Shown here: piece after piece, positions 6,367-64,000 of the stretch
How positions within the stretch are numbered: position 1 is the first letter of the stretch
How the letters are laid out: each line of letters begins with the position of its first letter
IMG/VR virus record: IMGVR_UViG_3300024269_004845
Source of the DNA: a virus
Taxonomy: Duplodnaviria; Caudoviricetes
Length of the DNA: 64,000 nucleotides
Direction: 5' to 3' (one strand)
Translations under genes and position numbers: made by a program
The notes under the pieces: generated by a model
Told to the model about the DNA's origin: nothing
The model's database searches: none
The model's input: the letters and a program-made list of their open reading frames with translations, nothing else

Positions 6367-8788
6367 GAGAGCATCCTCCTAAAATATTATTGGTAACGCT
6401 ATCTGTTATAAGTTGGGAACAGATAGGACATATTTTTGCATCTTTTAAAACTTTAGCTTTTTCTTTCAAATATTCGGCTTCTTGTTTTGCTAAAGAATCT
6501 ATTTTTTTATTACTAGCTGTTACTTCTGCCTTATACTTTTCGCAATTTTTAATTTCTAAAGATATAGCTGATTTAGACTCTAATAATTTGTTCAATTGGG
6601 AAATTGTTTTATCGGCCGTTAATACTCCATTAGAAGCAGCAATTAATCTGTCAGCTGCTTGCATTGTTCTGCAATGCTTTCTGTATGCGATAGTAGAGTC
6701 TTTAATGGAAGACCCTTTATCTAGTAAAACCCTTATTTCTGGGATTAATTTTTCTTTACAGCCACTTAGTCCCACTAACATCTTTGAAATTTGTCTTTGA
6801 CGCTTTGTTTCTCTTGTGTATATGCTTAGATTATCTTCTATCAAAATGTGCTTTTCTAAGAGATTGCGAATGCTATTTACCTTCATAGCATTTCTAATAA
6901 CATCATCACAAGATTTTATTTTGCTTGTTGCGTTTAAAATATTTTTTCTTTCTGTTGAAGCTTTTTGTGTTTCCGCAGAAATTATATCCATTTTTTCTTT
7001 TAGTTGTTTTATTTTAATAAGATAGTTGTCTTGAAGTATTTTATTATAAATATCAACTAAATAATCTGCTTGTTTAGCTTTGGATTCGTGTTCTGTCTTA
7101 AGGGTTAAATAGGTGGTTATTTTTTCTTTTAATAACATTTTTTCTAGCAATTCTCTAACTTTTTCCATATGCTCTCTTTCGGCTGTTAATTTTGCAACAT
7201 CTTCAAGAGTTTTGTCAATTTGTGATAAGTTGCTTTTTATGCTAGATGTTATTTGAGAGTTTTCCTTATCTAAATCCTTAACTATCGAGTCTGCAGACTG
7301 TGTATTTTGTAAAGAACCTAATATTCTGGCTCTTTCTGTAGAACTTATATTATCATCAATTAAATACCATCCTTGTCCTTGGCGTAGAAAATTGATTGGC
7401 ATTGAAAGGTTATTAGTAATTTGCATATCGTTAAATCCACAAATGGATTGTACTAATCCTACCATATGCGTATTGCCTTCTTGTACAGTTCCGTCTGGAA
7501 AAATTACTTTATACCCATTTTCTTTTTTACTAATAAAACGAGTTATATAAGTGCCATTTACCAATTTTATTGTTACTGAGCATTTATCGGTTCCATGTCT
7601 AACCATTGAAGTACCCGCAGGTTTATTTTCAAGTACCCATCTAAACGCTCTTAGAAGAGATGTTTTTCCTTGACGACTTTCGCCCAACAAAACATTAAAT
7701 CCATCGGATAGATTAACTGTAGTGTTTTCATGTGATTGGAAGTTTTCTAAAGTTATGGATTCAAAACAAACATCTGTTGGAACCTTTAAAAATGAATTAT
7801 TTTGAAGTTCTTTTTCTGCTATGCGTTTTCTCAAATCATCCATTACAACTTCTGGGACTTCTTCTTTTTTGAAAACATCTTCGAGGATTTCAGAAAAGCG
7901 AGAATTTTGAGTTATTTCTAGACTTTTGATTTCTGATTTCATTTTTTCCGCAGCAGCTTCTTTTAGCTTTTTCTGTTCCACAACTTCTCTGCTCAACACG
8001 ATAGATGCATCGAGTGCAGATTTGAGAGGAACTTCCTCTAAAGAAATTCCAGAATCATCTATTGTTAAAATGATAACTTTTACTACCCTCGACAATTCTT
8101 TTACATCGTTCTTAAGACGAACAATTGCTCCTGGATTTACAAAATATTTATTATTGTAAATAACTGTATCGAATCCAATATGGTCATGGCCACAGAATGT
8201 AACATCTGCTTTAGTATCCTTAATTGCGTCAATTGTTGTATGACGAATAATTTTGCCAAGATTTTTGGGGGATAACATACCGTGCACAATATGAATATGG
8301 TAATCTCCCAATTTGTTGTCGATAATATAATCATCAACATATTCTGGCTTGTCCATATTTATGTGATAGTTTGACCCCGTTATAGCAACTGTTTTTCCAT
8401 TTTCTAGAGTGAAAATAACAGGGTTATCTTTCGTTACTAACTTTTGATACCCAAGAGCTGCAGTTAAACCAAGTGTGGTATTTGGCAGAGAACGAATATT
8501 TCCGCCAATCAAATCATGATTGCCAGCGATTCCAATCATTGGGATTGATTCTTTTGGGTTAAGTGGGTCTGTCCAACGTTTAATAATTTCTGGGATGAAA
8601 TCGTTTCTAATCTTATAATCACTGTCTGTCCAAAAATCTCCAGCTTGAATAATTGCAGATACATTATATTTTTTAGCTATTGATAAAATTTCTTCATCTT
8701 TTGCTTTTTGAGTTTCGTAAAAATCATCTATTCTACTTTGAGGTTTTTGCTCTGAATTGTGTCGGTCACCCATTAATAAAAATTTCAA
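6359..8788 (-). CDS. Mre11/SbcD metallophosphoesterase fused to the Rad50/SbcC N-terminal half (Walker A, coiled coil, zinc hook)
   Basis: GDRH, AGDFW, AGNHD, HGM and GHDH phosphoesterase motifs; then LENFQSH, GESRQGKT Walker A, a long coil and terminal CPIC hook. Confidence 0.9.
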   Translation of the reverse strand: MKFLLMGDRHNSEQKPQSRIDDFYETQKAKDEEILSIAKKYNVSAIIQAGDFWTDSDYKIRNDFIPEIIKRWTDPLNPKESIPMIGIAGNHDLIGGNIRSLPNTTLGLTAALGYQKLVTKDNPVIFTLENGKTVAITGSNYHINMDKPEYVDDYIIDNKLGDYHIHIVHGMLSPKNLGKIIRHTTIDAIKDTKADVTFCGHDHIGFDTVIYNNKYFVNPGAIVRLKNDVKELSRVVKVIILTIDDSGISLEEVPLKSALDASIVLSREVVEQKKLKEAAAEKMKSEIKSLEITQNSRFSEILEDVFKKEEVPEVVMDDLRKRIAEKELQNNSFLKVPTDVCFESITLENFQSHENTTVNLSDGFNVLLGESRQGKTSLLRAFRWVLENKPAGTSMVRHGTDKCSVTIKLVNGTYITRFISKKENGYKVIFPDGTVQEGNTHMVGLVQSICGFNDMQITNNLSMPINFLRQGQGWYLIDDNISSTERARILGSLQNTQSADSIVKDLDKENSQITSSIKSNLSQIDKTLEDVAKLTAEREHMEKVRELLEKMLLKEKITTYLTLKTEHESKAKQADYLVDIYNKILQDNYLIKIKQLKEKMDIISAETQKASTERKNILNATSKIKSCDDVIRNAMKVNSIRNLLEKHILIEDNLSIYTRETKRQRQISKMLVGLSGCKEKLIPEIRVLLDKGSSIKDSTIAYRKHCRTMQAADRLIAASNGVLTADKTISQLNKLLESKSAISLEIKNCEKYKAEVTASNKKIDSLAKQEAEYLKEKAKVLKDAKICPICSQLITDSVTNNILGGCSHE

Positions 8789-8909
8789 GATGGCGCACCT
8801 CCTTTACTATACATTATAGCATAAAATGTTTGAAAAATCAAGAGTTATAAAAAAAAGACTATCCGTCTGAGACGGATAGTCTAATTAGCATTTTAATATC
8901 TGCTATTAA

Positions 8910-9095
8910 TTACTTCAAGTTACCAACCTGCATGCTGTTAACAGAGGACTGAGCAGAACCAATCCAGCCAACAATCATACGGCCGAAAGCGATAAGGGCA
9001 ACACCCATGATAAGAGCAACAGCGATACCGATGATAGTTTCAACGGAAGGACCTCCGCACTCACCCATAATAGCAGTCTTCATATTCTTAAACAT
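8910..9095 (-). CDS. Flp/Fap-type (type IVc) prepilin
   Basis: 61 aa; short leader ending ECG, Glu at +5 (G|GPSVE) then a hydrophobic helix; strong AGGAGG RBS and own terminator; Tad genes elsewhere in the window. Confidence 0.7.
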   Translation of the reverse strand: MFKNMKTAIMGECGGPSVETIIGIAVALIMGVALIAFGRMIVGWIGSAQSSVNSMQVGNLK

Positions 9096-9615
9096 TTCGA
9101 ATAACCTCCTTTTAAAAATTTTTGATATTGTTTTTATATTGTAATATCTGTCAAATTGAGATATTACATAATTTGGTTTTATAGGAGATTATCCGAAAAA
9201 CTTAAAATCTCCAAAAATCAAATTATATAATATGATATTAATCATTTTTTAATTTTATAACTAAAATGTGCTTACTAGAACATTATTGTTATATTTTTTT
9301 TAGAATCAATTTCAATCATCATTTTCATATTTAATTTCATTTGGTTTGAAACAAATATTACAATTGACAATTTCTCATTGTCTTATATATCATATTTTAA
9401 TCTTTCTTTAATTTATTATCAAAAAGTGTTTTACAGAATAAAAAATGTTTTTACATTTTTTTCTAACGTCTGAAATCTTTTATTGGTGTCCTTTTCCTTA
9501 TATTTATATAAATAAAAACATATTATTTAATATGTTTTGTAAGTTCCAATTATCGCTTATATCACAGGATACACGTCCTAAAAGAAAAGGAGGTGTCCCG
9601 TTAACGGGAACTAAT

Positions 9616-11688
9616 ATGCAAATTAACGAAATTAGAGAAAAAATTATTGATACTCTTTATACATCGCAGCCTACTGCGATGAAATCTTTGGCTAGAAAAA
9701 TTGAGCTTACTAAAGAAGATTATAAACCATTTCGTATTGTTCTAAATAATTTGGAGAAAACAAATTTGGTGGATAACACTAACGGTAAATATGCTTTTCC
9801 TTCAAATTTTAACATTGGATACTTACAAACATTTAAGAAAAGCGAAAATTATATCTTCTTTAAGAATAAAAAATATCAAGTGGTTGAAGATGTTACTAAT
9901 AGTGCCATTCATGGCGATAAAGTGATTTTTGAAGTTGTTGATAGATATTTACAGACTGTAAGAATTATATCTACAATAAAAAGAAAAAGCACAAAGGTTG
10001 CTGGAATCTATGTTGAATATAATGGTATCGGCTTCGTAGTTCCTGACAATGATAGGTTGAATGTTGATATATATGTGCAAAGAAATAATATTAAGCCAAA
10101 TCTTTATGATAGGGTATTGGTTAAAATCGATGAATATAAAGTTTTCGGCAAGCCTGAAGGGGTTATCGAAAAAAAACTATTTGAAGATTTAAATAAAGAA
10201 GAATCGGCTCTTGAACGTGTTTTATCAAAATATGATATTCCAGCAGAATTTCCAAATGATGTTGTGAAAAAAGCAATCTTGTTAAATGTTCCAGTTAAGA
10301 ATAACATGATAACAGAAAGAGTTGATTTAAGAGATGAAAACATCTTTACTATTGATGGTAAAGACGCTCGTGACTTTGACGATGCTATTTCTATAAAAAA
10401 GACAGAATTCGGATATGAACTTGGTGTTTATATTGCTGATGTATCTTATTATGTACAAGAAAATAGTGTTATAGATAAGTGTGCATTTGAAAGAGGCACT
10501 AGTTATTATTTAGATGATTATGTCGTCCCAATGCTCCCAGTTGCACTATCTAATGGCGTGTGCAGTTTAAATGAGGGAGAAGATAAATTAGTAATTGGTT
10601 TAAAAATAATTTTTGACAATTATGGAAAGATTTTGAATCATGAATTGTTTGAAGCGGTTATATGTTCTAAAAAACGCTTTACATATGAAGAAATAAATGA
10701 CTATCTTAATGGCAAAAATCCAAGATTTAAAGATGATAATCGCTTATTATTCGACGATTTAATGGCTGGTTTTGAATTGGCAGAATTATTAAATAAAAAG
10801 CGTAGTAATAATGGATGTATTGATTTTGAATTTGGTGAGCTTACTTTTAAAAGAAATGATGACAAAAAAATCATTGATTTTGGGACATATGAAAGGGGTC
10901 CAGCAAATGATTTAATTGAAGAGTTTATGATAGTTGCTAATGAAACTATTGCTGAAATATTTGCTGGGTTGGGGCATCCATTTATATATAGAACTCATGG
11001 GGTTCCGTTCAGCGAAAAACTGCAAAATTTTGTTGATATTTGCAAAGAAAACAATATTGATTGCTCAATGCTCGATATAAATAATCCTACTTCTAAACAA
11101 TTGAAAGAACTAATATCCAACATTGAAGATTCTAATCTAAAAAAGAGTATTAATATGAACTTAATTACTACTATGAAACAAGCTCGTTATACAAATGAGT
11201 TTGATGGGCATTTTGGGTTAGCATCTCAATATTACTGTCACTTCACGTCTCCCATTCGTAGATATCCTGACTTATTTATTCATAGGCTAGTTAAAAAATA
11301 CATCCGTAAAAAACTTAACAATGATGTTACTAAAGAGCTTTATGAAAAAATGAGTGAAAAGGTCGCTAAACATTGTTGTTATACCGAGCGTAATGCAGAT
11401 AGAGCAGAAGAGGAATTGAATAGAATTCAGGCTATGCAATATATGGCTGATAATCCTGAAAGAGAATATGAAGCTTTAATATATGGGATTAACAGAAATG
11501 GGTTATTGATTCTCGTCAATGATGTTGTTTCTGGATTTATTCGTGCTAAAAATGATAATGAAGATGGATTAGCATCATCCATCATTATAAATGATATCAC
11601 TTATAAGATTGGCGATAAAATTAATGTTTCTTTTAAAGAGTATGATGTTAAAAACTCGAAATTAATTTTTGACCCATTGGAGGGATAA
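9616..11688 (+). CDS. rnr: Ribonuclease R (RNB family); ORF open from 9445, likely start ATG 9616
   Basis: FTIDGKDARDFDDAIS, IADVS, LIEEFMIVAN and HFTSPIRRYPDL motifs; N-terminal HTH/cold-shock and C-terminal S1-like regions. Confidence 0.93.
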   Translation: MQINEIREKIIDTLYTSQPTAMKSLARKIELTKEDYKPFRIVLNNLEKTNLVDNTNGKYAFPSNFNIGYLQTFKKSENYIFFKNKKYQVVEDVTNSAIHGDKVIFEVVDRYLQTVRIISTIKRKSTKVAGIYVEYNGIGFVVPDNDRLNVDIYVQRNNIKPNLYDRVLVKIDEYKVFGKPEGVIEKKLFEDLNKEESALERVLSKYDIPAEFPNDVVKKAILLNVPVKNNMITERVDLRDENIFTIDGKDARDFDDAISIKKTEFGYELGVYIADVSYYVQENSVIDKCAFERGTSYYLDDYVVPMLPVALSNGVCSLNEGEDKLVIGLKIIFDNYGKILNHELFEAVICSKKRFTYEEINDYLNGKNPRFKDDNRLLFDDLMAGFELAELLNKKRSNNGCIDFEFGELTFKRNDDKKIIDFGTYERGPANDLIEEFMIVANETIAEIFAGLGHPFIYRTHGVPFSEKLQNFVDICKENNIDCSMLDINNPTSKQLKELISNIEDSNLKKSINMNLITTMKQARYTNEFDGHFGLASQYYCHFTSPIRRYPDLFIHRLVKKYIRKKLNNDVTKELYEKMSEKVAKHCCYTERNADRAEEELNRIQAMQYMADNPEREYEALIYGINRNGLLILVNDVVSGFIRAKNDNEDGLASSIIINDITYKIGDKINVSFKEYDVKNSKLIFDPLEG

Positions 11689-11691
11689 ATA

Positions 11692-11838
11692 ATGAAACTA
11701 AAAACAATTACCATTTGTATGTGCTTAATAATTCTAATGTTTGGGATAATGTTCAAATATGCTACTTGGAGAGACACTGAATTTTTAACTCAAGAAGAAG
11801 TTGTTGAAAGAACTAAAACATTTGAAGAAATAAAATAA
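11692..11838 (+). CDS. Small single-TM protein (48 aa, MKLKTITICMCLIILMFGIMF...)
   Basis: GGAGGG RBS at the end of rnr; ORF below the ORF-track size cut-off. Confidence 0.6.
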   Translation: MKLKTITICMCLIILMFGIMFKYATWRDTEFLTQEEVVERTKTFEEIK

Positions 11839-11864
11839 TAAAAAGTGAGCTAATGGATTTTTCA

Positions 11865-12491
11865 TTAGCTCACTTTTTTTGTATCCCACCAATCCAAAGA
11901 TTCTAAATATTTTTGAGATAGTGGAAAATCTTCTTTTTTGTAATTAAACCAAAAATCGTTAAACTGTAACATATAAACATCCGCAAAAAACTCGCTAGAA
12001 TCTTTTTGAGCATATTCTCTAATTTTTGATTTTTCTTTTTTATAAATATTTTCGAATATTTCTGACTCGTCTGGGTCGCCATTTATTTTGCTTAGCGCAT
12101 GAGCTACTTCATGTAGTAAATTTGCGCCAACCTGGTCGGTAACGGGATAAAGATATATTCGTTTATCAGCGTAAACTGTAAGTCCTGCAAAAAATCTATA
12201 ATATTCCTTGCTATAAGAAATAATTTTTTCTTTATTAATTTCTATTTTATAGCCTGCGTCTCTCAATATCTCTAGGTGGTTTCTTGGTATAGATAATAAG
12301 TTTTTCATAGACATAATATTGGCAAAAGAATAGTGTTTGTCTTGGACAAGAAGTTCATCTGCTAAATTATAATTGGGATGGTATTTCATTCCGTTTATAT
12401 AACTACAAATAAAAAATATTATAAAAATAATAAGCATAACAAATGTTACTAATACCATTTTTGAAATTTTGAGAATACAATTTTTAAGCAT
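11865..12491 (-). CDS. Membrane-anchored zinc metallopeptidase, anthrax lethal factor/Pro-Pro endopeptidase-like fold
   Basis: N-terminal TM; LLHEVAHAL (HExxH) and YAQKDSSEFFADVY motifs. Confidence 0.7.
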   Translation of the reverse strand: MLKNCILKISKMVLVTFVMLIIFIIFFICSYINGMKYHPNYNLADELLVQDKHYSFANIMSMKNLLSIPRNHLEILRDAGYKIEINKEKIISYSKEYYRFFAGLTVYADKRIYLYPVTDQVGANLLHEVAHALSKINGDPDESEIFENIYKKEKSKIREYAQKDSSEFFADVYMLQFNDFWFNYKKEDFPLSQKYLESLDWWDTKKVS

Positions 12492-13386
12492 GATATTTTT
12501 CTCCTAATATATATCTAACGATATTAAAATCATACGGGAAACCTGCAGCCATTTCATGTCCTCCACCACCATATTTTTCAGCAATTTTAGAAACGTTGAT
12601 GGTTCCAAAACTTCTTAATGAAATCGAATTTGGCATACTAATAAACATAAATAGCTTTATTTCGGGGTATGAGGTGTGTATATCTGTTAAAATTTTACTT
12701 ATATATAATGATTCTTCTAAAAAGAAAACCCCTGTTTTATAGCCTTCAAAATCAACGAAAAACAATTCTTTTTGTTTTTGTTTTGAATACATATCTATTT
12801 TATTTTTCATATTTGTCGTGACATCTATATCTGAATAAGAAAGTATATATCCTTTTTTTAAATTAGGAAGAATGTGTCTCCAATAATTTCTAAAATAAAT
12901 AAAAAATAAAATGCTTAGTTCATTGGGGCAATATTTAGAATTATATTTATTTCTCATATATTCTCCCGTATCAAAAAGCCTGACGGTTTCTACATAGTCA
13001 GATATTATATCAACTTTATCTATTTCGCCATTATCTGATAAGTAATTATAAAATAATTGTGTTGCGCAGGTAGGTTTTCCTTTATATGTAGTCTTAATGC
13101 GTGCCCAAGAATATTTATTCAAAAATTCACCTGTTTCGTGATGGTCGATAAGTATGAAATTATCAATGTTGTTGTTAATATATTCTGCTACTTCAGCTGA
13201 TGGATATACATCACACAAAAAGATTTTTTTATACTTATGCATATCTGGGCTATTGAAAAAGTTCATTAATTCTTGGTCTACTAATTTGTTGTTTATATTT
13301 TTTATATCTACTTTTAAATTATAATAACGAGCTACTACGTTAATAGAATATCCATCTAAATCATTATGAGAGAATATTTTATACAT
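12484..13386 (-). CDS. DHH/DHHA1 phosphoesterase (NrnA/NrnB-like oligoribonuclease)
   Basis: SHNDLDG, LIDHHET, SLRS and GGGGHEMAAG motifs. Confidence 0.88.
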   Translation of the reverse strand: MYKIFSHNDLDGYSINVVARYYNLKVDIKNINNKLVDQELMNFFNSPDMHKYKKIFLCDVYPSAEVAEYINNNIDNFILIDHHETGEFLNKYSWARIKTTYKGKPTCATQLFYNYLSDNGEIDKVDIISDYVETVRLFDTGEYMRNKYNSKYCPNELSILFFIYFRNYWRHILPNLKKGYILSYSDIDVTTNMKNKIDMYSKQKQKELFFVDFEGYKTGVFFLEESLYISKILTDIHTSYPEIKLFMFISMPNSISLRSFGTINVSKIAEKYGGGGHEMAAGFPYDFNIVRYILGEKYHA

Positions 13387-61097: not shown

Positions 61098-61233
61098 TCG
61101 AAGACATGTTGTATGTCAAACTAAACAACTTCAAGTTATCGCAGAGTTCTTATAGAAGAATGGGCCCAAATAATAAATTAGTAGTGGCAAGCGAAAGTTT
61201 ATGGGTTGAAGCGGATTAAAGAAGTTTTTAAAT

Positions 61234-61376
61234 GGTCCCATCGACAAGTGGTCTAAGTCGTCGCCCTTTCGTTGGATTAGTTTAAGTAAAACATTACTGC
61301 GGTAAAGATTTGAGTGCAAGTCTCATGTTCAGCACCAAAGGCGGAGTCACGGGTTCGAATCCCGTTGGGACTACCA
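61234..61376 (+). tRNA. tRNA-Glu(TTC) interrupted after the anticodon by a 67-nt tRNA-like insert (halves 61234-61270 and 61338-61376)
   Basis: Joining the halves gives a canonical 76-nt cloverleaf with TCGCC-CT-TTC-AA-GGCGG and CCA. Confidence 0.85.
61271..61337 (+). ncRNA. Nested mini-tRNA-like element ending in CCA
   Basis: Acceptor GTTGGAT/GTTCAGC; D-arm GTTT-AAGTA-AAAC; short arm TTAC-TGCG-GTAA; T-arm TGAG-TGCAAGT-CTCA; then ACCA. Confidence 0.75.
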
Positions 61377-61386
61377 TTTTAAACAT

Positions 61387-61463
61387 GCTCCCATCCTCTA
61401 ACGGGCCTAGGAGTCATCCCTTTCAAGGATGCAATGCGAGTTCGAGCCTCGCTGGGAGTACCA
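61387..61463 (+). tRNA. tRNA-Glu(TTC)
   Basis: CATCC-CT-TTC-AA-GGATG; CCA. Confidence 0.92.
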
Positions 61464-61469
61464 CTATAT

Positions 61470-61545
61470 TCCTCGTTAGTCTAGTTGGTAAAACGGCGGA
61501 CTGTTAATCCGTATAGCGCTGGTTCGAGCCCAGCACGAGGAGCCA
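61470..61545 (+). tRNA. tRNA-Asn(GTT)
   Basis: GCGGA-CT-GTT-AA-TCCGT; CCA. Confidence 0.93.
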
Positions 61546-61633
61546 CGCTGCTGTGGAATGCGGAACCCTTAATCACCACAGGTGGGTACGGTTGGTAAAC
61601 CGCTAAGGTAATCTTAGAAAAGCTTCCTTATAC

Positions 61634-61707
61634 GCTGGCATAGTTTAAAGGTAAAACAAGGACCTTGTAAGTCTTAGTTCCCAGTTCGATTCTGGGTGCC
61701 AGCTCCA
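61634..61707 (+). tRNA. tRNA-Thr(TGT)
   Basis: AGGAC-CT-TGT-AA-GTCTT; CCA. Confidence 0.93.
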
Positions 61708-61713
61708 TATGTC

Positions 61714-61742
61714 TTTACTTCTTGTTAAAAAATGTATATAAT
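61714..61742 (+). promoter_or_regulatory. Internal sigmaA-like promoter ahead of the VIT1/CCC1 gene
   Basis: TTTACT, 17-bp spacer, TATAAT. Confidence 0.55.
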
Positions 61743-61771
61743 AGATATATATTAATTATGGAGGTAATATT

Positions 61772-62650
61772 TTGAAAAATATATCCGAAAAAAGTTTGTC
61801 TATTATAAGAAAGATGCAACAAAATGAATTAACTGAAAGCGTTATATATCGTGAAATTGCTAAATTTGCAAAAGGTGAAGATAATAAATCTACTCTAAAT
61901 CGTTTAGCAGACGAAGAATTTAAGCACTATGAAATCTGGAAGAAATATACCAATGAAGAAATGAAACCAGAAAAGCGAAAGGTGTTTAAATACAAATGGA
62001 TTGCTCGTATATTTGGTTTTACATTTGCTGTTAAGCTTATGGAAAACGGAGAAATGGATGCTCAAAAAGAGTATGAACAATTAAAAGACGAAGTTCCTGA
62101 AAGCATAGGAGTTAGGAAGCAGGAAGAAGAGCACGAGGAAGCATTATTAAATATGCTGGATGAAGAACGACTTCAATATATAGGGAGTATGGTTCTTGGG
62201 ATGAATGATGCTCTTGTAGAATTAACGGGTTCTCTTGCTGGGTTTACATTTGCTATGCAAAATACCAAGCTAATTGCGCTTGCAGGATTAATTATTGGCA
62301 TTTCAGCAACTTTTTCGATGGCTTCCAGTGAATTTTTATCTGCTAAAAGCGAAGGGAGAACAGATGCACTAAAATCCTGTTCTTATACTGGGATTGCTTA
62401 TTTAATGACAGTTATTTTATTAATATTACCGTATTTATTGTTGGGTAGTACTCAATATATATTGGCTTTAGTATTTATGATGTTAACTGTTATAGCAATC
62501 ATAGCAGTATTTACATATTATATATCTGTAGCTCAAGGAGAAAATTTTAAATCCAGATTTTCTGAAATGGCGCTGATAAGTGTTAGTGTTGCAGTATTAT
62601 CTTTTGTTGTTGGGATACTTGCTAAACAGTTTCTTGGAGTAGAAATTTAA
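61772..62650 (+). CDS. Rubrerythrin-like domain plus VIT1/CCC1 iron transporter family protein
   Basis: ExxH di-iron motifs (DEEFKH, EEEHE), then VLGMNDALVE, SMASSEFLS and several TM helices. Confidence 0.88.
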   Translation: MKNISEKSLSIIRKMQQNELTESVIYREIAKFAKGEDNKSTLNRLADEEFKHYEIWKKYTNEEMKPEKRKVFKYKWIARIFGFTFAVKLMENGEMDAQKEYEQLKDEVPESIGVRKQEEEHEEALLNMLDEERLQYIGSMVLGMNDALVELTGSLAGFTFAMQNTKLIALAGLIIGISATFSMASSEFLSAKSEGRTDALKSCSYTGIAYLMTVILLILPYLLLGSTQYILALVFMMLTVIAIIAVFTYYISVAQGENFKSRFSEMALISVSVAVLSFVVGILAKQFLGVEI

Positions 62651-62659
62651 CTTTGGTAA

Positions 62660-62876
62660 AAACAAATATCGATGGCAGTAGTTCAAGTGTTTAGATTATG
62701 CCTTTTCTAAATAGGACTGTCGAGAAATGTGAAAGTAACGACCACTAAGGTTATTTTAAAAGTTCTCTAACAAGGGTGTGTAGGCTGCACTACGAGTCAA
62801 ATAATCTTCGTATTGGTTGTTCTAATGTACATGATGCCAAAAACTGGACACATTGTAAACTTGAACATATTTGTTT
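62660..62876 (+). ncRNA. Candidate structured ncRNA (about 220 nt)
   Basis: Closing helices AAACAAATAT/ATATTTGTTT and GTTCAAGT/ACTTGAAC; several internal helices; no ORF. Confidence 0.6.
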
Positions 62877-62886
62877 CTACATATAT

Positions 62887-63138
62887 TGGTGACCTCTACC
62901 AACCGTTCTAAATGGGAGATACCTCAAAAGCACACCCGTGTGAGAGTGAGATAAGTGAGATAGCTTATAATTCAGAAGACGAATATAGGGTTATAAGTGA
63001 TGCCTGGTGACAAAAGGGGCTTGAATAATGCGTCGGTTCGTGAGTTTGTGTAGCTTAAAGTTGAAGTAACACAGAGAATACCATTGGTGAGAGTAGAACG
63101 TCATGGGTAGTTACTACGGGTTATTCACAAAACTTTTT
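62887..63138 (+). ncRNA. Unclassified structured ncRNA, copy 1
   Basis: Shares ordered sequence blocks and covarying stems with 63745-64000. Confidence 0.7.
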
Positions 63139-63152
63139 ATTTAAACTTATCT

Positions 63153-63227
63153 GCTGGTGTGGCTCAATGGCAGAGCAGCGGTATCGTAAACCGCAGGTTG
63201 CAAGTTCGACTCTTGTCACCAGCTCCA
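63153..63227 (+). tRNA. tRNA-Thr(CGT)
   Basis: GCGGT-AT-CGT-AA-ACCGC; CCA. Confidence 0.93.
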
Positions 63228-63249
63228 ACAAAAACAAGGAGCGTGATTT

Positions 63250-63549
63250 ATGATGGATAGTCAGTTAAAGATTTGTCCTAAATGTGGGAAAGTAGTTTCT
63301 TATAAATATCATTTTCACAGATATGTTTGTGATGAATGCGGATGGGAGGAAGAGATTCCTGAAGTAAGCGATGAAGAAACACCAGAAGATAAAAGATTAA
63401 GAGAGCTCTTTTTAGATAAGATTTGTAGAAAATATCCTTGTGGTTCTCAAAGATGTGATGGTGGTCCCGAATGGATTACTGGATGTTCATTATATAAAGA
63501 ATTCATAAAAGGTGTGGATACCTTGTCTGAACAATTATTAAACAAATAA
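63250..63549 (+). CDS. Small Cys-rich zinc-ribbon protein
   Basis: AAGGAG RBS; CPKCG...CDECG plus a second Cys cluster. Confidence 0.7.
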   Translation: MMDSQLKICPKCGKVVSYKYHFHRYVCDECGWEEEIPEVSDEETPEDKRLRELFLDKICRKYPCGSQRCDGGPEWITGCSLYKEFIKGVDTLSEQLLNK

Positions 63550-63572
63550 TTAATTGCTCGAACAAAAAAAAG

Positions 63573-63601
63573 TAGACTTTTATTAATATTTATGTTATAA
63601 T
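63573..63601 (+). promoter_or_regulatory. sigmaA-like promoter for tRNA-Asp and the downstream ncRNA
   Basis: TAGACT, 17-bp spacer, extended -10 TGtTATAAT. Confidence 0.65.
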
Positions 63602-63667
63602 ATATAATAGTTTGGTTGATTGTGGCGTATTAGCACAAAACAATACGTAATTCCAAACTTTCTATAT

Positions 63668-63744
63668 GGCTCGGTAGTTCAGATGGTTAGAACGCCGCCC
63701 TGTCACGGCGGAGGTCGAGGGTTCGAGTCCCTTCCGAGTCGCCA
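63668..63744 (+). tRNA. tRNA-Asp(GTC), canonical
   Basis: CCGCC-CT-GTC-AC-GGCGG; G73; CCA. Confidence 0.96.
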
Positions 63745-64000
63745 TGGAGAACTCTGCCTACCACTCCTAATGGGGGATAGCCTTATTATCATTCATTTTA
63801 GAATGTGCGGGTGAAACAAGTGAGATAGTCTGTAGGTTGATGCGGTCAGAGATTTACAGATGATAGCTGGAGACCAATGGGCTTTGAAGAAATTGGTCGG
63901 ACACGGATATGTCGTAACTTTTAGGGTTGCAAGGAATGACATATTTGTGCTTGCGCTGCCTATGCGCAAAACCCTTTTAAAACGTGGGGTCGTTGCCCAC
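63745..64000 (+). ncRNA. Unclassified structured ncRNA, copy 2 (truncated by the window end)
   Basis: Starts directly after the tRNA-Asp CCA; homologous to 62887-63138; several hairpins. Confidence 0.7.

Follow-up and report, generated by a model that had tools for sequence, protein, structure and literature searches.

Among RNAs associated with phage tRNA genes, GOLLD is ∼800 nt long with a conserved 3′ half, and ROOL (Rfam RF03087) is ∼580 nt long. The RNAC and RNAD species of phage T4 (119-139 nt) are excised by the tRNA-processing machinery, and theta/HDV-like ribozymes, which are pseudoknotted and ∼50-70 nt in size with a defined double-pseudoknot core, directly adjoin tRNA ends in the tRNA arrays of phages. 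Phages and prophages encode both GOLLD and ROOL, in many cases close to tRNA islands; GOLLD is a structured RNA with no assigned function, and ROOL is an ornate RNA that contains multiple pseudoknots and for which no protein partner is known (PMC12286853). RNAC and RNAD (species 1 and 2) are non-tRNA small RNAs from the phage tRNA region, with unassigned roles (PMC3014915). Here we analyze two segments of the tRNA array at the end of a 64,000-nt stretch of DNA (IMG/VR record IMGVR_UViG_3300024269_004845; the window). From the comparison of related sequences we conclude that the two segments belong to a new RNA family with a defined fold and coding strand, that the family is restricted to the tRNA arrays of large mobile elements, and that it is duplicated in the element to which the window belongs.

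A duplicated RNA module in a tRNA array

The original prediction, that the array contains an unclassified structured RNA in two paralogous copies, was confirmed as an observation. Ordered blocks of both copies were aligned by MAFFT, and copy 1, used as a blastn query against the whole window, recovered copy 2 with an E value of 4e-8 (63% identity over 158 nt), the next best match having an E value of 0.86. Shared blocks include AAGTGAGATAG, GAT..CTGG.GAC, and GGGCTT/TTGAA. The copies are diverged paralogues (56% identical), and in copy 2 relative to copy 1 16 base pairs are altered on both sides while 46 of the 48 model pairs are kept. Both of the compensatory stems first proposed were found, the central hairpin pairing GCTTATAA with TTATAAGT in one copy and GTCTGTAG with TTACAGAT in the other, and the small variable hairpin changing from CACAC/GUGUG to CAUUC/GAAUG. 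The claimed adjacency to tRNAs also held: copy 2 begins immediately after the tRNA-Asp CCA, at 63745, and the last paired base of copy 1 (∼63135) lies 17 nt before tRNA-Thr at 63153. The + strand of copy 1 contains no open reading frame (ORF) of at least 40 aa.

Like GOLLD, the new RNA has its copies near the tRNA genes of large mobile elements. It is ∼240 nt in size, so that RNAC and RNAD are about half as large, and it differs in size from the theta/HDV-like ribozymes, no HDV-family match overlapping the module. In searches of window positions 60000-64000 against Rfam 15, neither copy had a match to any family, whether gathering thresholds or E values up to 10 were applied, and six related loci (E ≤0.1-1) gave only tRNAs and unrelated RNAs. 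The GOLLD model (RF02032) had no match in the same part of the window (E ≤10) or in positions 7000-12600 of an overlapping contig, L002 (E ≤1), and the ROOL model had none in the window searches (E up to 10) or in the related loci. The same search method detected a GOLLD match in one of the homologous contigs (L127:4602-5052, − strand; 113.5 bits, E 9e-30, below the gathering score of 150). That match and the new RNA of L127 are separate loci ∼2 kb apart in one 19-tRNA array; therefore the new RNA is not GOLLD, and the two can coexist. Models of self-cleaving ribozymes (HDV-like/theta, twister, hatchet, and others) and of RNase P gave no match over the copies (E ≤10) or their homologues. The modules were also found to lack the constant position upstream of related genes and the expression platform of a riboswitch or leader.

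Fold and covariation of the module

A covariance model (R1) was built from eight sequences, and 15 sequences aligned by covariance model were used for the covariation statistics. In the refined structure 94.5% of the cells pair, and 30 of the 49 pairs are changed on both sides among the 15 sequences. The covariation score was 0.548, compared with 0.231 in shuffles (reached by 0 of 500), and fell to 0.06-0.14 in slid controls in which the partners were moved by 1-3 columns. Three lineages that were not among the eight sequences behind R1 kept 47 of 49 (L120), 39 of 47 (L096), and 43 of 48 (L127) pairs, with 10-13 double changes each. The coding strand is fixed by invariant G-U pairs. With the lack of any Rfam 15 match, these values bear out the initial description of an unclassified RNA with covarying stems.

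The fold, which is well supported by this covariation, begins at the 5′ end with a conserved motif and two small hairpins; next come a junction and a long 3′ hairpin, and a GGYRA/UYRC helix and a pseudoknot complete it (Table 1). The junction is made of the invariant AAGUGAGAUAG, UGAU, and UUGAAUAAU strands and bears the 11-bp hairpin together with the short hairpin and its 11-nt loop; in the stem of the latter, two of the four pairs covary (GC/AU and CG/GC). The pseudoknot joins the loop of the long hairpin to the 3′ tail and was found through an all-against-all search for stacked covarying columns. It occurs as seven sequence variants across the lineages with pairing in every one, including AAGGUUU/AAACCUU in L055, UUGUGAUU/AAUCACAA in L001, UAAAGUUU/AAACUUUA in L120, UUGCU/AGCAA in L096, and GCUGUU/AACAGC in L127. 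The GGYRA/UYRC helix pairs in 100% of the cells, all four of its pairs covary, and its variants are GUGA/UCAC, GCGA/UCGC, GCAA/UUGC, GCAG/CUGC, and CUUG/CAAG. The hairpin at the 5′ motif (helix 1) is weakly supported, being without covariation and broken in copy 2. Conservation without a testable pairing partner was observed for GG.GA..CUCU.CC.AC, for the strands AAGUGAGA.AG, UGAU, and UUGAA.AAU, and for the loops CAGAAG... and G.GAC.AA.

Table 1. Coordinates of the copies, their predicted structural elements, and adjoining features. Positions are those of the window; window coordinate = L002 coordinate + 53249.
Feature	Position	Strand	Detail
Copy 1, full covariance-model match	62883..63144	+	R1 287.5 bits; 47/49 model pairs canonical
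Copy 2, full covariance-model match	63741..63983	+	R1 184.4 bits; 46/48 pairs canonical
Conserved 5′ motif GGUGAcCUCUACCAAC	62888..62903; copy 2 63746-63761	+	GG.GA..CUCU.CC.AC columns invariant in alignments A3 and A7
Invariant junction AAGUGAGAUAG	62953..62963; copy 2 63818-63828	+	AAGUGAGA invariant in all eight lineages
Central 11-bp hairpin, conserved loop CAGAAGAC...	62963..62998; copy 2 63828-63861	+	7/11 pairs double-changed; 97% of cells pair
Short hairpin GCCU/GGGC, conserved 11-nt loop GGUGACAAAAG, then conserved UUGAAUAAU	63002..63020; copy 2 63865-63883	+
Long 3′ hairpin, loop = pseudoknot 5′ strand	63044..63077; copy 2 63902-63949	+	9/9 pairs double-changed within the family
Pseudoknot, copy 1	63058..63062 AAGUU with 63131-63135 AACUU	+	100% of cells pair; 3-4 pairs covary
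Pseudoknot, copy 2	63923-63928 AGGGUU with 63970-63975 AACCCU	+
GGYRA/UYRC helix, copy 1	GUGA 63087-63090 with UCAC 63125-63128	+	Encloses variable hairpin
GGYRA/UYRC helix, copy 2	UUGCGC 63951-63956 with GCGCAA 63964-63969	+	No insert
Conserved non-coding domain, 236 nt	62651-62886	+	Between VIT1 stop codon and copy 1
tRNA-Thr(CGU)	63153..63227	+	ARAGORN and Rfam; starts 17 nt past last paired base of copy 1
Promoter-like site	63573-63601 (L002 10324-10352)	+	TAGACT-17-TATAAT, upstream TG; before tRNA-Asp
tRNA-Asp(GUC)	63668..63744	+	ARAGORN and Rfam; CCA adjoins copy 2
Structured extension, 556 nt, ORF-free, up to tRNA-Asn	L002 10735-11290 (window part 63984..64000)	+	Distinct from module

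The interpretation offered in the original prediction was partly supported, in that three of its structural claims failed. A long-range helix had been proposed in copy 1 between TGAATAA (63022-63028) and TTATTCA (63121-63127), and its pairing has no double-changed pairs and was equalled by all 500 shuffles; the changes on the TTATTCA side are uncompensated in L055, L001, L082, and copy 2 because these bases belong to the GGYRA/UYRC helix. The corresponding partner expected for copy 2, a TTCTTCA-like sequence beyond position 64000, was absent from the + strand, even with one mismatch allowed, in the stretch from TGAAGAA to the next tRNA (L002 10643-11290). Copy 2 does not run past the end of the window, as had been supposed; the module is complete inside it, homology to copy 1 stopping at ∼63983, and the rest is the different 556-nt structured sequence. 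Overlooked were the loop-tail pseudoknot, the covarying GGUGA/UCAC helix, and the completeness of copy 2.

Three further assignments were rejected. A helix in which RNAalifold pairs the 3′ tail with GAG, located downstream of the second hairpin, competes for the tail bases of the pseudoknot, and the latter covaries far better. An RNase P-like P4 pairing (AAG/CUU) involves nearly invariant bases, and no RNase P model matches. A CCA-binding UGG role for the conserved loops was dropped, UGG being missing in L120, L096, and L127.

Homologues, element, and flanking sequence

The module was found in eight lineages, and every copy lies in or beside a tRNA array of a large mobile element and on the tRNA strand. 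The lineages comprise the megaplasmid-like element of the window with its strain variants, a contig of a Clostridia metagenome-assembled genome (MAG), and four IMG/VR viral lineages (109-206 kb); each viral record holds exactly one copy. First scans with exact patterns, taken from blocks common to both copies, yielded three true homologues: L001, a 206-kb IMG/VR contig (sequence also in L048 and L049) in which tRNA-Thr and tRNA-Glu flank the module; L050, an orthologous contig of 1.4 kb; and L055, the 3.2-kb Clostridia MAG contig with seven tRNAs. Strain variants were reached via homologues of two proteins encoded in the array, a 99-aa zinc-ribbon-like protein and a VIT1-family protein (L063, L064, L065, L067, L076-L078, and L082). 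The two copies, these first homologues, and the strain variants scored 184-290 bits with R1, the partial L067 62.6 bits. Two later pattern scans, filtered with R1, gave three more IMG/VR lineages: L120/L108/L118 (181 bits; module directly after tRNA-Glu), L096 (103 bits; 116-kb contig, module upstream of tRNA-Thr), and L127 (85 bits; 119-kb contig, module within its 19-tRNA array). The copy in L082 (1213-1471), a diverged copy-1 orthologue, has the conserved loop CUGGUGACAAAAGGGGCUUGAAU changed to CUAUGGGCAAAUUGGUUUUA; it may be decaying or may reflect an assembly error in a single Logan contig.

R1 found no copy in 300 Clostridia genomes except in the MAG carrying L055, and the neighborhoods of VIT1 homologues (79-83% identity) in other giant elements, L070-L075, contained none. 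By blastn, GenBank phages (50,697 records) and PLSDB plasmids gave no module match; four modules searched against the phage records at word size 11, with the inclusion of T4 unconfirmed, returned tRNA matches or nothing and showed no sequence similarity to RNAC or RNAD. A 97-position core model, R2, added no further members among the collected loci, and looser DNA patterns produced mostly chance matches (43 of 44 in one scan and 10 of 11 in another). One candidate, L130, was discarded as a tRNA acceptor end plus a ribosome-binding site. The 99-aa zinc-ribbon ORF was considered as a shared protein partner and rejected, homologues being absent from five viral records.

The element of the window is low in GC (∼32%) and encodes type IV coupling proteins, gyrase A/B, topoisomerase III, RecD2, SbcCD-like and HerA-like ATPases, and an RNB exoribonuclease; on the basis of this protein set it is a conjugative megaplasmid-like element. 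Contigs of up to ∼300 kb carry proteins identical to those of the element. Many proteins share 78-83% identity with the VIT1 protein, and for at least one of them the source names a Lachnospiraceae MAG as the origin; the assignment of habitat and host comes solely from one MAG label and one protein name. The RNB-domain exoribonuclease (747 aa, RNase II/R family, E 3e-101; window 9445-11688, + strand) has a possible role in processing of the array RNA.

The array, with nine tRNAs called by ARAGORN on the + strand, fills the last 4 kb of the window and is broken by the VIT1-family ORF (61772-62650) and the 99-aa ORF (63250-63549). The latter is encoded on 22 contigs, of which L002 and L003 gave 10 kb on each side. 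Besides the promoter-like site before tRNA-Asp, such sites are present at the array start (60185-60213) and before VIT1 (61714-61742), and the array closes with a strong terminator-like site after its last tRNA. Given this layout, copy 1 would share a transcript with VIT1, the 236-nt upstream domain, tRNA-Thr, and the 99-aa ORF, and copy 2 would share one with tRNA-Asp, the 556-nt extension, and five more tRNAs.

The 236-nt domain is 92-94% identical in orthologues, with a few compensatory pairs, and the modules of L055, L120, and copy 2 have no such domain upstream; it may encode another RNA or extend the copy 1 transcript at its 5′ end. In L079 and L081 the domain is split by insertions, and after one such insertion comes an ORF that, judged by eye only, resembles IscB with a HEARO-like RNA upstream. 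The 556-nt extension, within a tRNA-Asp to tRNA-Asn gap of 795 nt, has 15 compensatory pairs among four close orthologues (85-93% identical) and matches neither R1 nor Rfam; it probably represents one or more further new RNAs. At L065:1320-1605, tRNA-Asp is followed after ∼30 nt by a different tRNA, copy 2 and its extension being absent, and this missing cassette indicates that the arrays evolve through cassette gain and loss.

Other RNAs and genes were seen in the related arrays. On the 206-kb viral contig, the tRNA array contains a HEARO RNA (L049:5502-5720, 106 bits) and a DUF3800-I RNA (L049:11634-11779, also L001:2287-2432 on the − strand; 57 bits, above its gathering score), and a GIY-YIG-like ORF follows tRNA-Glu. 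In L120, an abiF RNA match (2307-2343; 36.8 bits, gathering 37) comes 45 nt ahead of the tRNA-Glu after which the module lies.

Proposed release and action of the RNA, and alternatives

We consider it probable that both segments are genes of one new, compact non-coding RNA family of ∼240 nt, released from tRNA-array precursors and acting in trans. The module would be transcribed within tRNA-array precursor transcripts and released by the nucleases that process the flanking tRNAs, with RNase P acting at the downstream tRNA and 3′-end processing of the upstream tRNA; a terminator-like hairpin could provide an alternative 3′ end. Once freed, the RNA would serve the element in trans, with a binding or active surface formed by its invariant unpaired nucleotides. 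By analogy with T4 RNAC/RNAD, GOLLD, and ROOL, the module is most likely a stable trans-acting RNA cut from tRNA precursors. Its arrangement appears to fit the RNAC/RNAD type, the module lying on the tRNA strand, abutting tRNAs, and having a promoter-like site upstream of tRNA-Asp. Release by tRNA processing, as initially proposed, is plausible for copies located within a tRNA array and bounded by tRNA ends, and the likeness of context to GOLLD and ROOL extends to all copies, in or beside tRNA arrays as they are. The modules of copy 2 and L120 start 0-8 nt after a tRNA. In copy 1, L077, and L001 a tRNA follows 1-8 nt past the end of the model match, whose final ∼9 nt lie beyond the last pair and are unpaired. 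Downstream of the module, L055 and L127 have a terminator-like hairpin and U-run, after which comes an 11/12 promoter match; in these two contigs the module would end a transcription unit and stands alone.

Several points weigh against this proposal. We infer the transcription, ends, and stability of the module RNA. The alignments were fitted to the model itself, E values from the short calibration are rough, and the family consists of only eight lineages, several being closely related. The spacing between module and nearest tRNA ranges from 0 to ∼280 nt (L096), so tRNA processing cannot set both ends everywhere, and the hairpins of L055 and L127 were not called terminators by the consensus scan. 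Both window copies run into conserved structured sequence, upstream of copy 1 and downstream of copy 2, with no tRNA, terminator, or promoter detected between; the mature RNAs may therefore be larger in the element of the window. The loss of part of the conserved loop motif in L082 means that some copies may be decaying.

That the module is a shared domain of larger ornate RNAs, of ∼490 nt (copy 1 with its upstream domain) and ∼800 nt (copy 2 with its extension), is unlikely but carries a real chance of being right. These sizes are comparable to those of ROOL and GOLLD, the two flanks are conserved with compensatory changes and are not separated from the modules by any detected tRNA, promoter, or terminator, and L001 and L096 also have non-coding flanks of 250-280 nt. 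However, the module occurs alone in L055, L120, and L127, between a tRNA or ORF on one side and a terminator-like hairpin, promoter, or ORF on the other, and the flanks differ between lineages. All helices, including the pseudoknot with the module's own tail, close inside the module, and neither the GOLLD nor the ROOL model of Rfam matches.

A new functional class, as opposed to a passive stable RNA, is quite unlikely in our estimate: either a ribozyme or tRNA-directed RNA that helps to mature or protect the tRNAs of the element, or a multimer assembled in trans through loop and tail like ROOL or GOLLD. The invariant AAGUGAGAUAG, UGAU, and UUGAAUAAU strands would in that case be the active or binding site.

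We regard as improbable a catalytic RNA that cleaves itself or acts on neighboring tRNA precursors, as theta/HDV-like ribozymes trim phage tRNAs. The highly conserved unpaired nucleotides at a multi-helix junction with a pseudoknot would suit catalysis, and several copies adjoin tRNA ends exactly. An HDV-like match elsewhere in the array also speaks for it; this HDV-F-prausnitzii match is weak (23 bits, E 0.44) and lies directly after tRNA-Met, which ends at L002 11729 (L002:11730-11790, ∼907 nt past the window end), and ribozyme-assisted processing may occur there. Against catalysis, no Rfam 15 ribozyme family, RNase P included, is similar at E values up to 10, the module is larger than known small self-cleavers, its adjacency to tRNAs is inconstant (45 nt in L055, ∼280 nt in L096, and an ORF overlap in L127), and no cleavage-site signature could be defined. 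A cis-regulator, i.e., a riboswitch or attenuator governing read-through into, or the stability of, a downstream tRNA or gene, is likewise improbable: the aptamer-like junction with invariant strands, the U-rich 3′ tail of copy 1, and the hairpin and U-run after the module in L055 and L127 would agree with it, but the downstream sequence differs in each lineage (tRNA-Thr, the 556-nt RNA, tRNA-Glu, a terminator with a new promoter, or an ORF), no expression platform is conserved, and the copy 2 and L120 modules follow rather than precede the adjacent tRNA.

Large phages and giant plasmids harbor, in their tRNA arrays, an emerging reservoir of structured RNAs without assigned function, such as T4 RNAC/RNAD, GOLLD, and ROOL. 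To these the present work adds a well-defined family that has a pseudoknotted fold backed by covariation and two diverged copies in one element. At ∼240 nt the RNA is small enough for direct structure probing, cryo-EM, and crystallography, and the covariance models together with the eight lineages are a starting point for a metagenome-wide search. The confinement of the family to mobile elements and its absence from ∼300 Clostridia genomes suggest a role in the element's own biology, with translation takeover, tRNA supply or protection, and counter-defence, rather than host housekeeping, as candidate roles.

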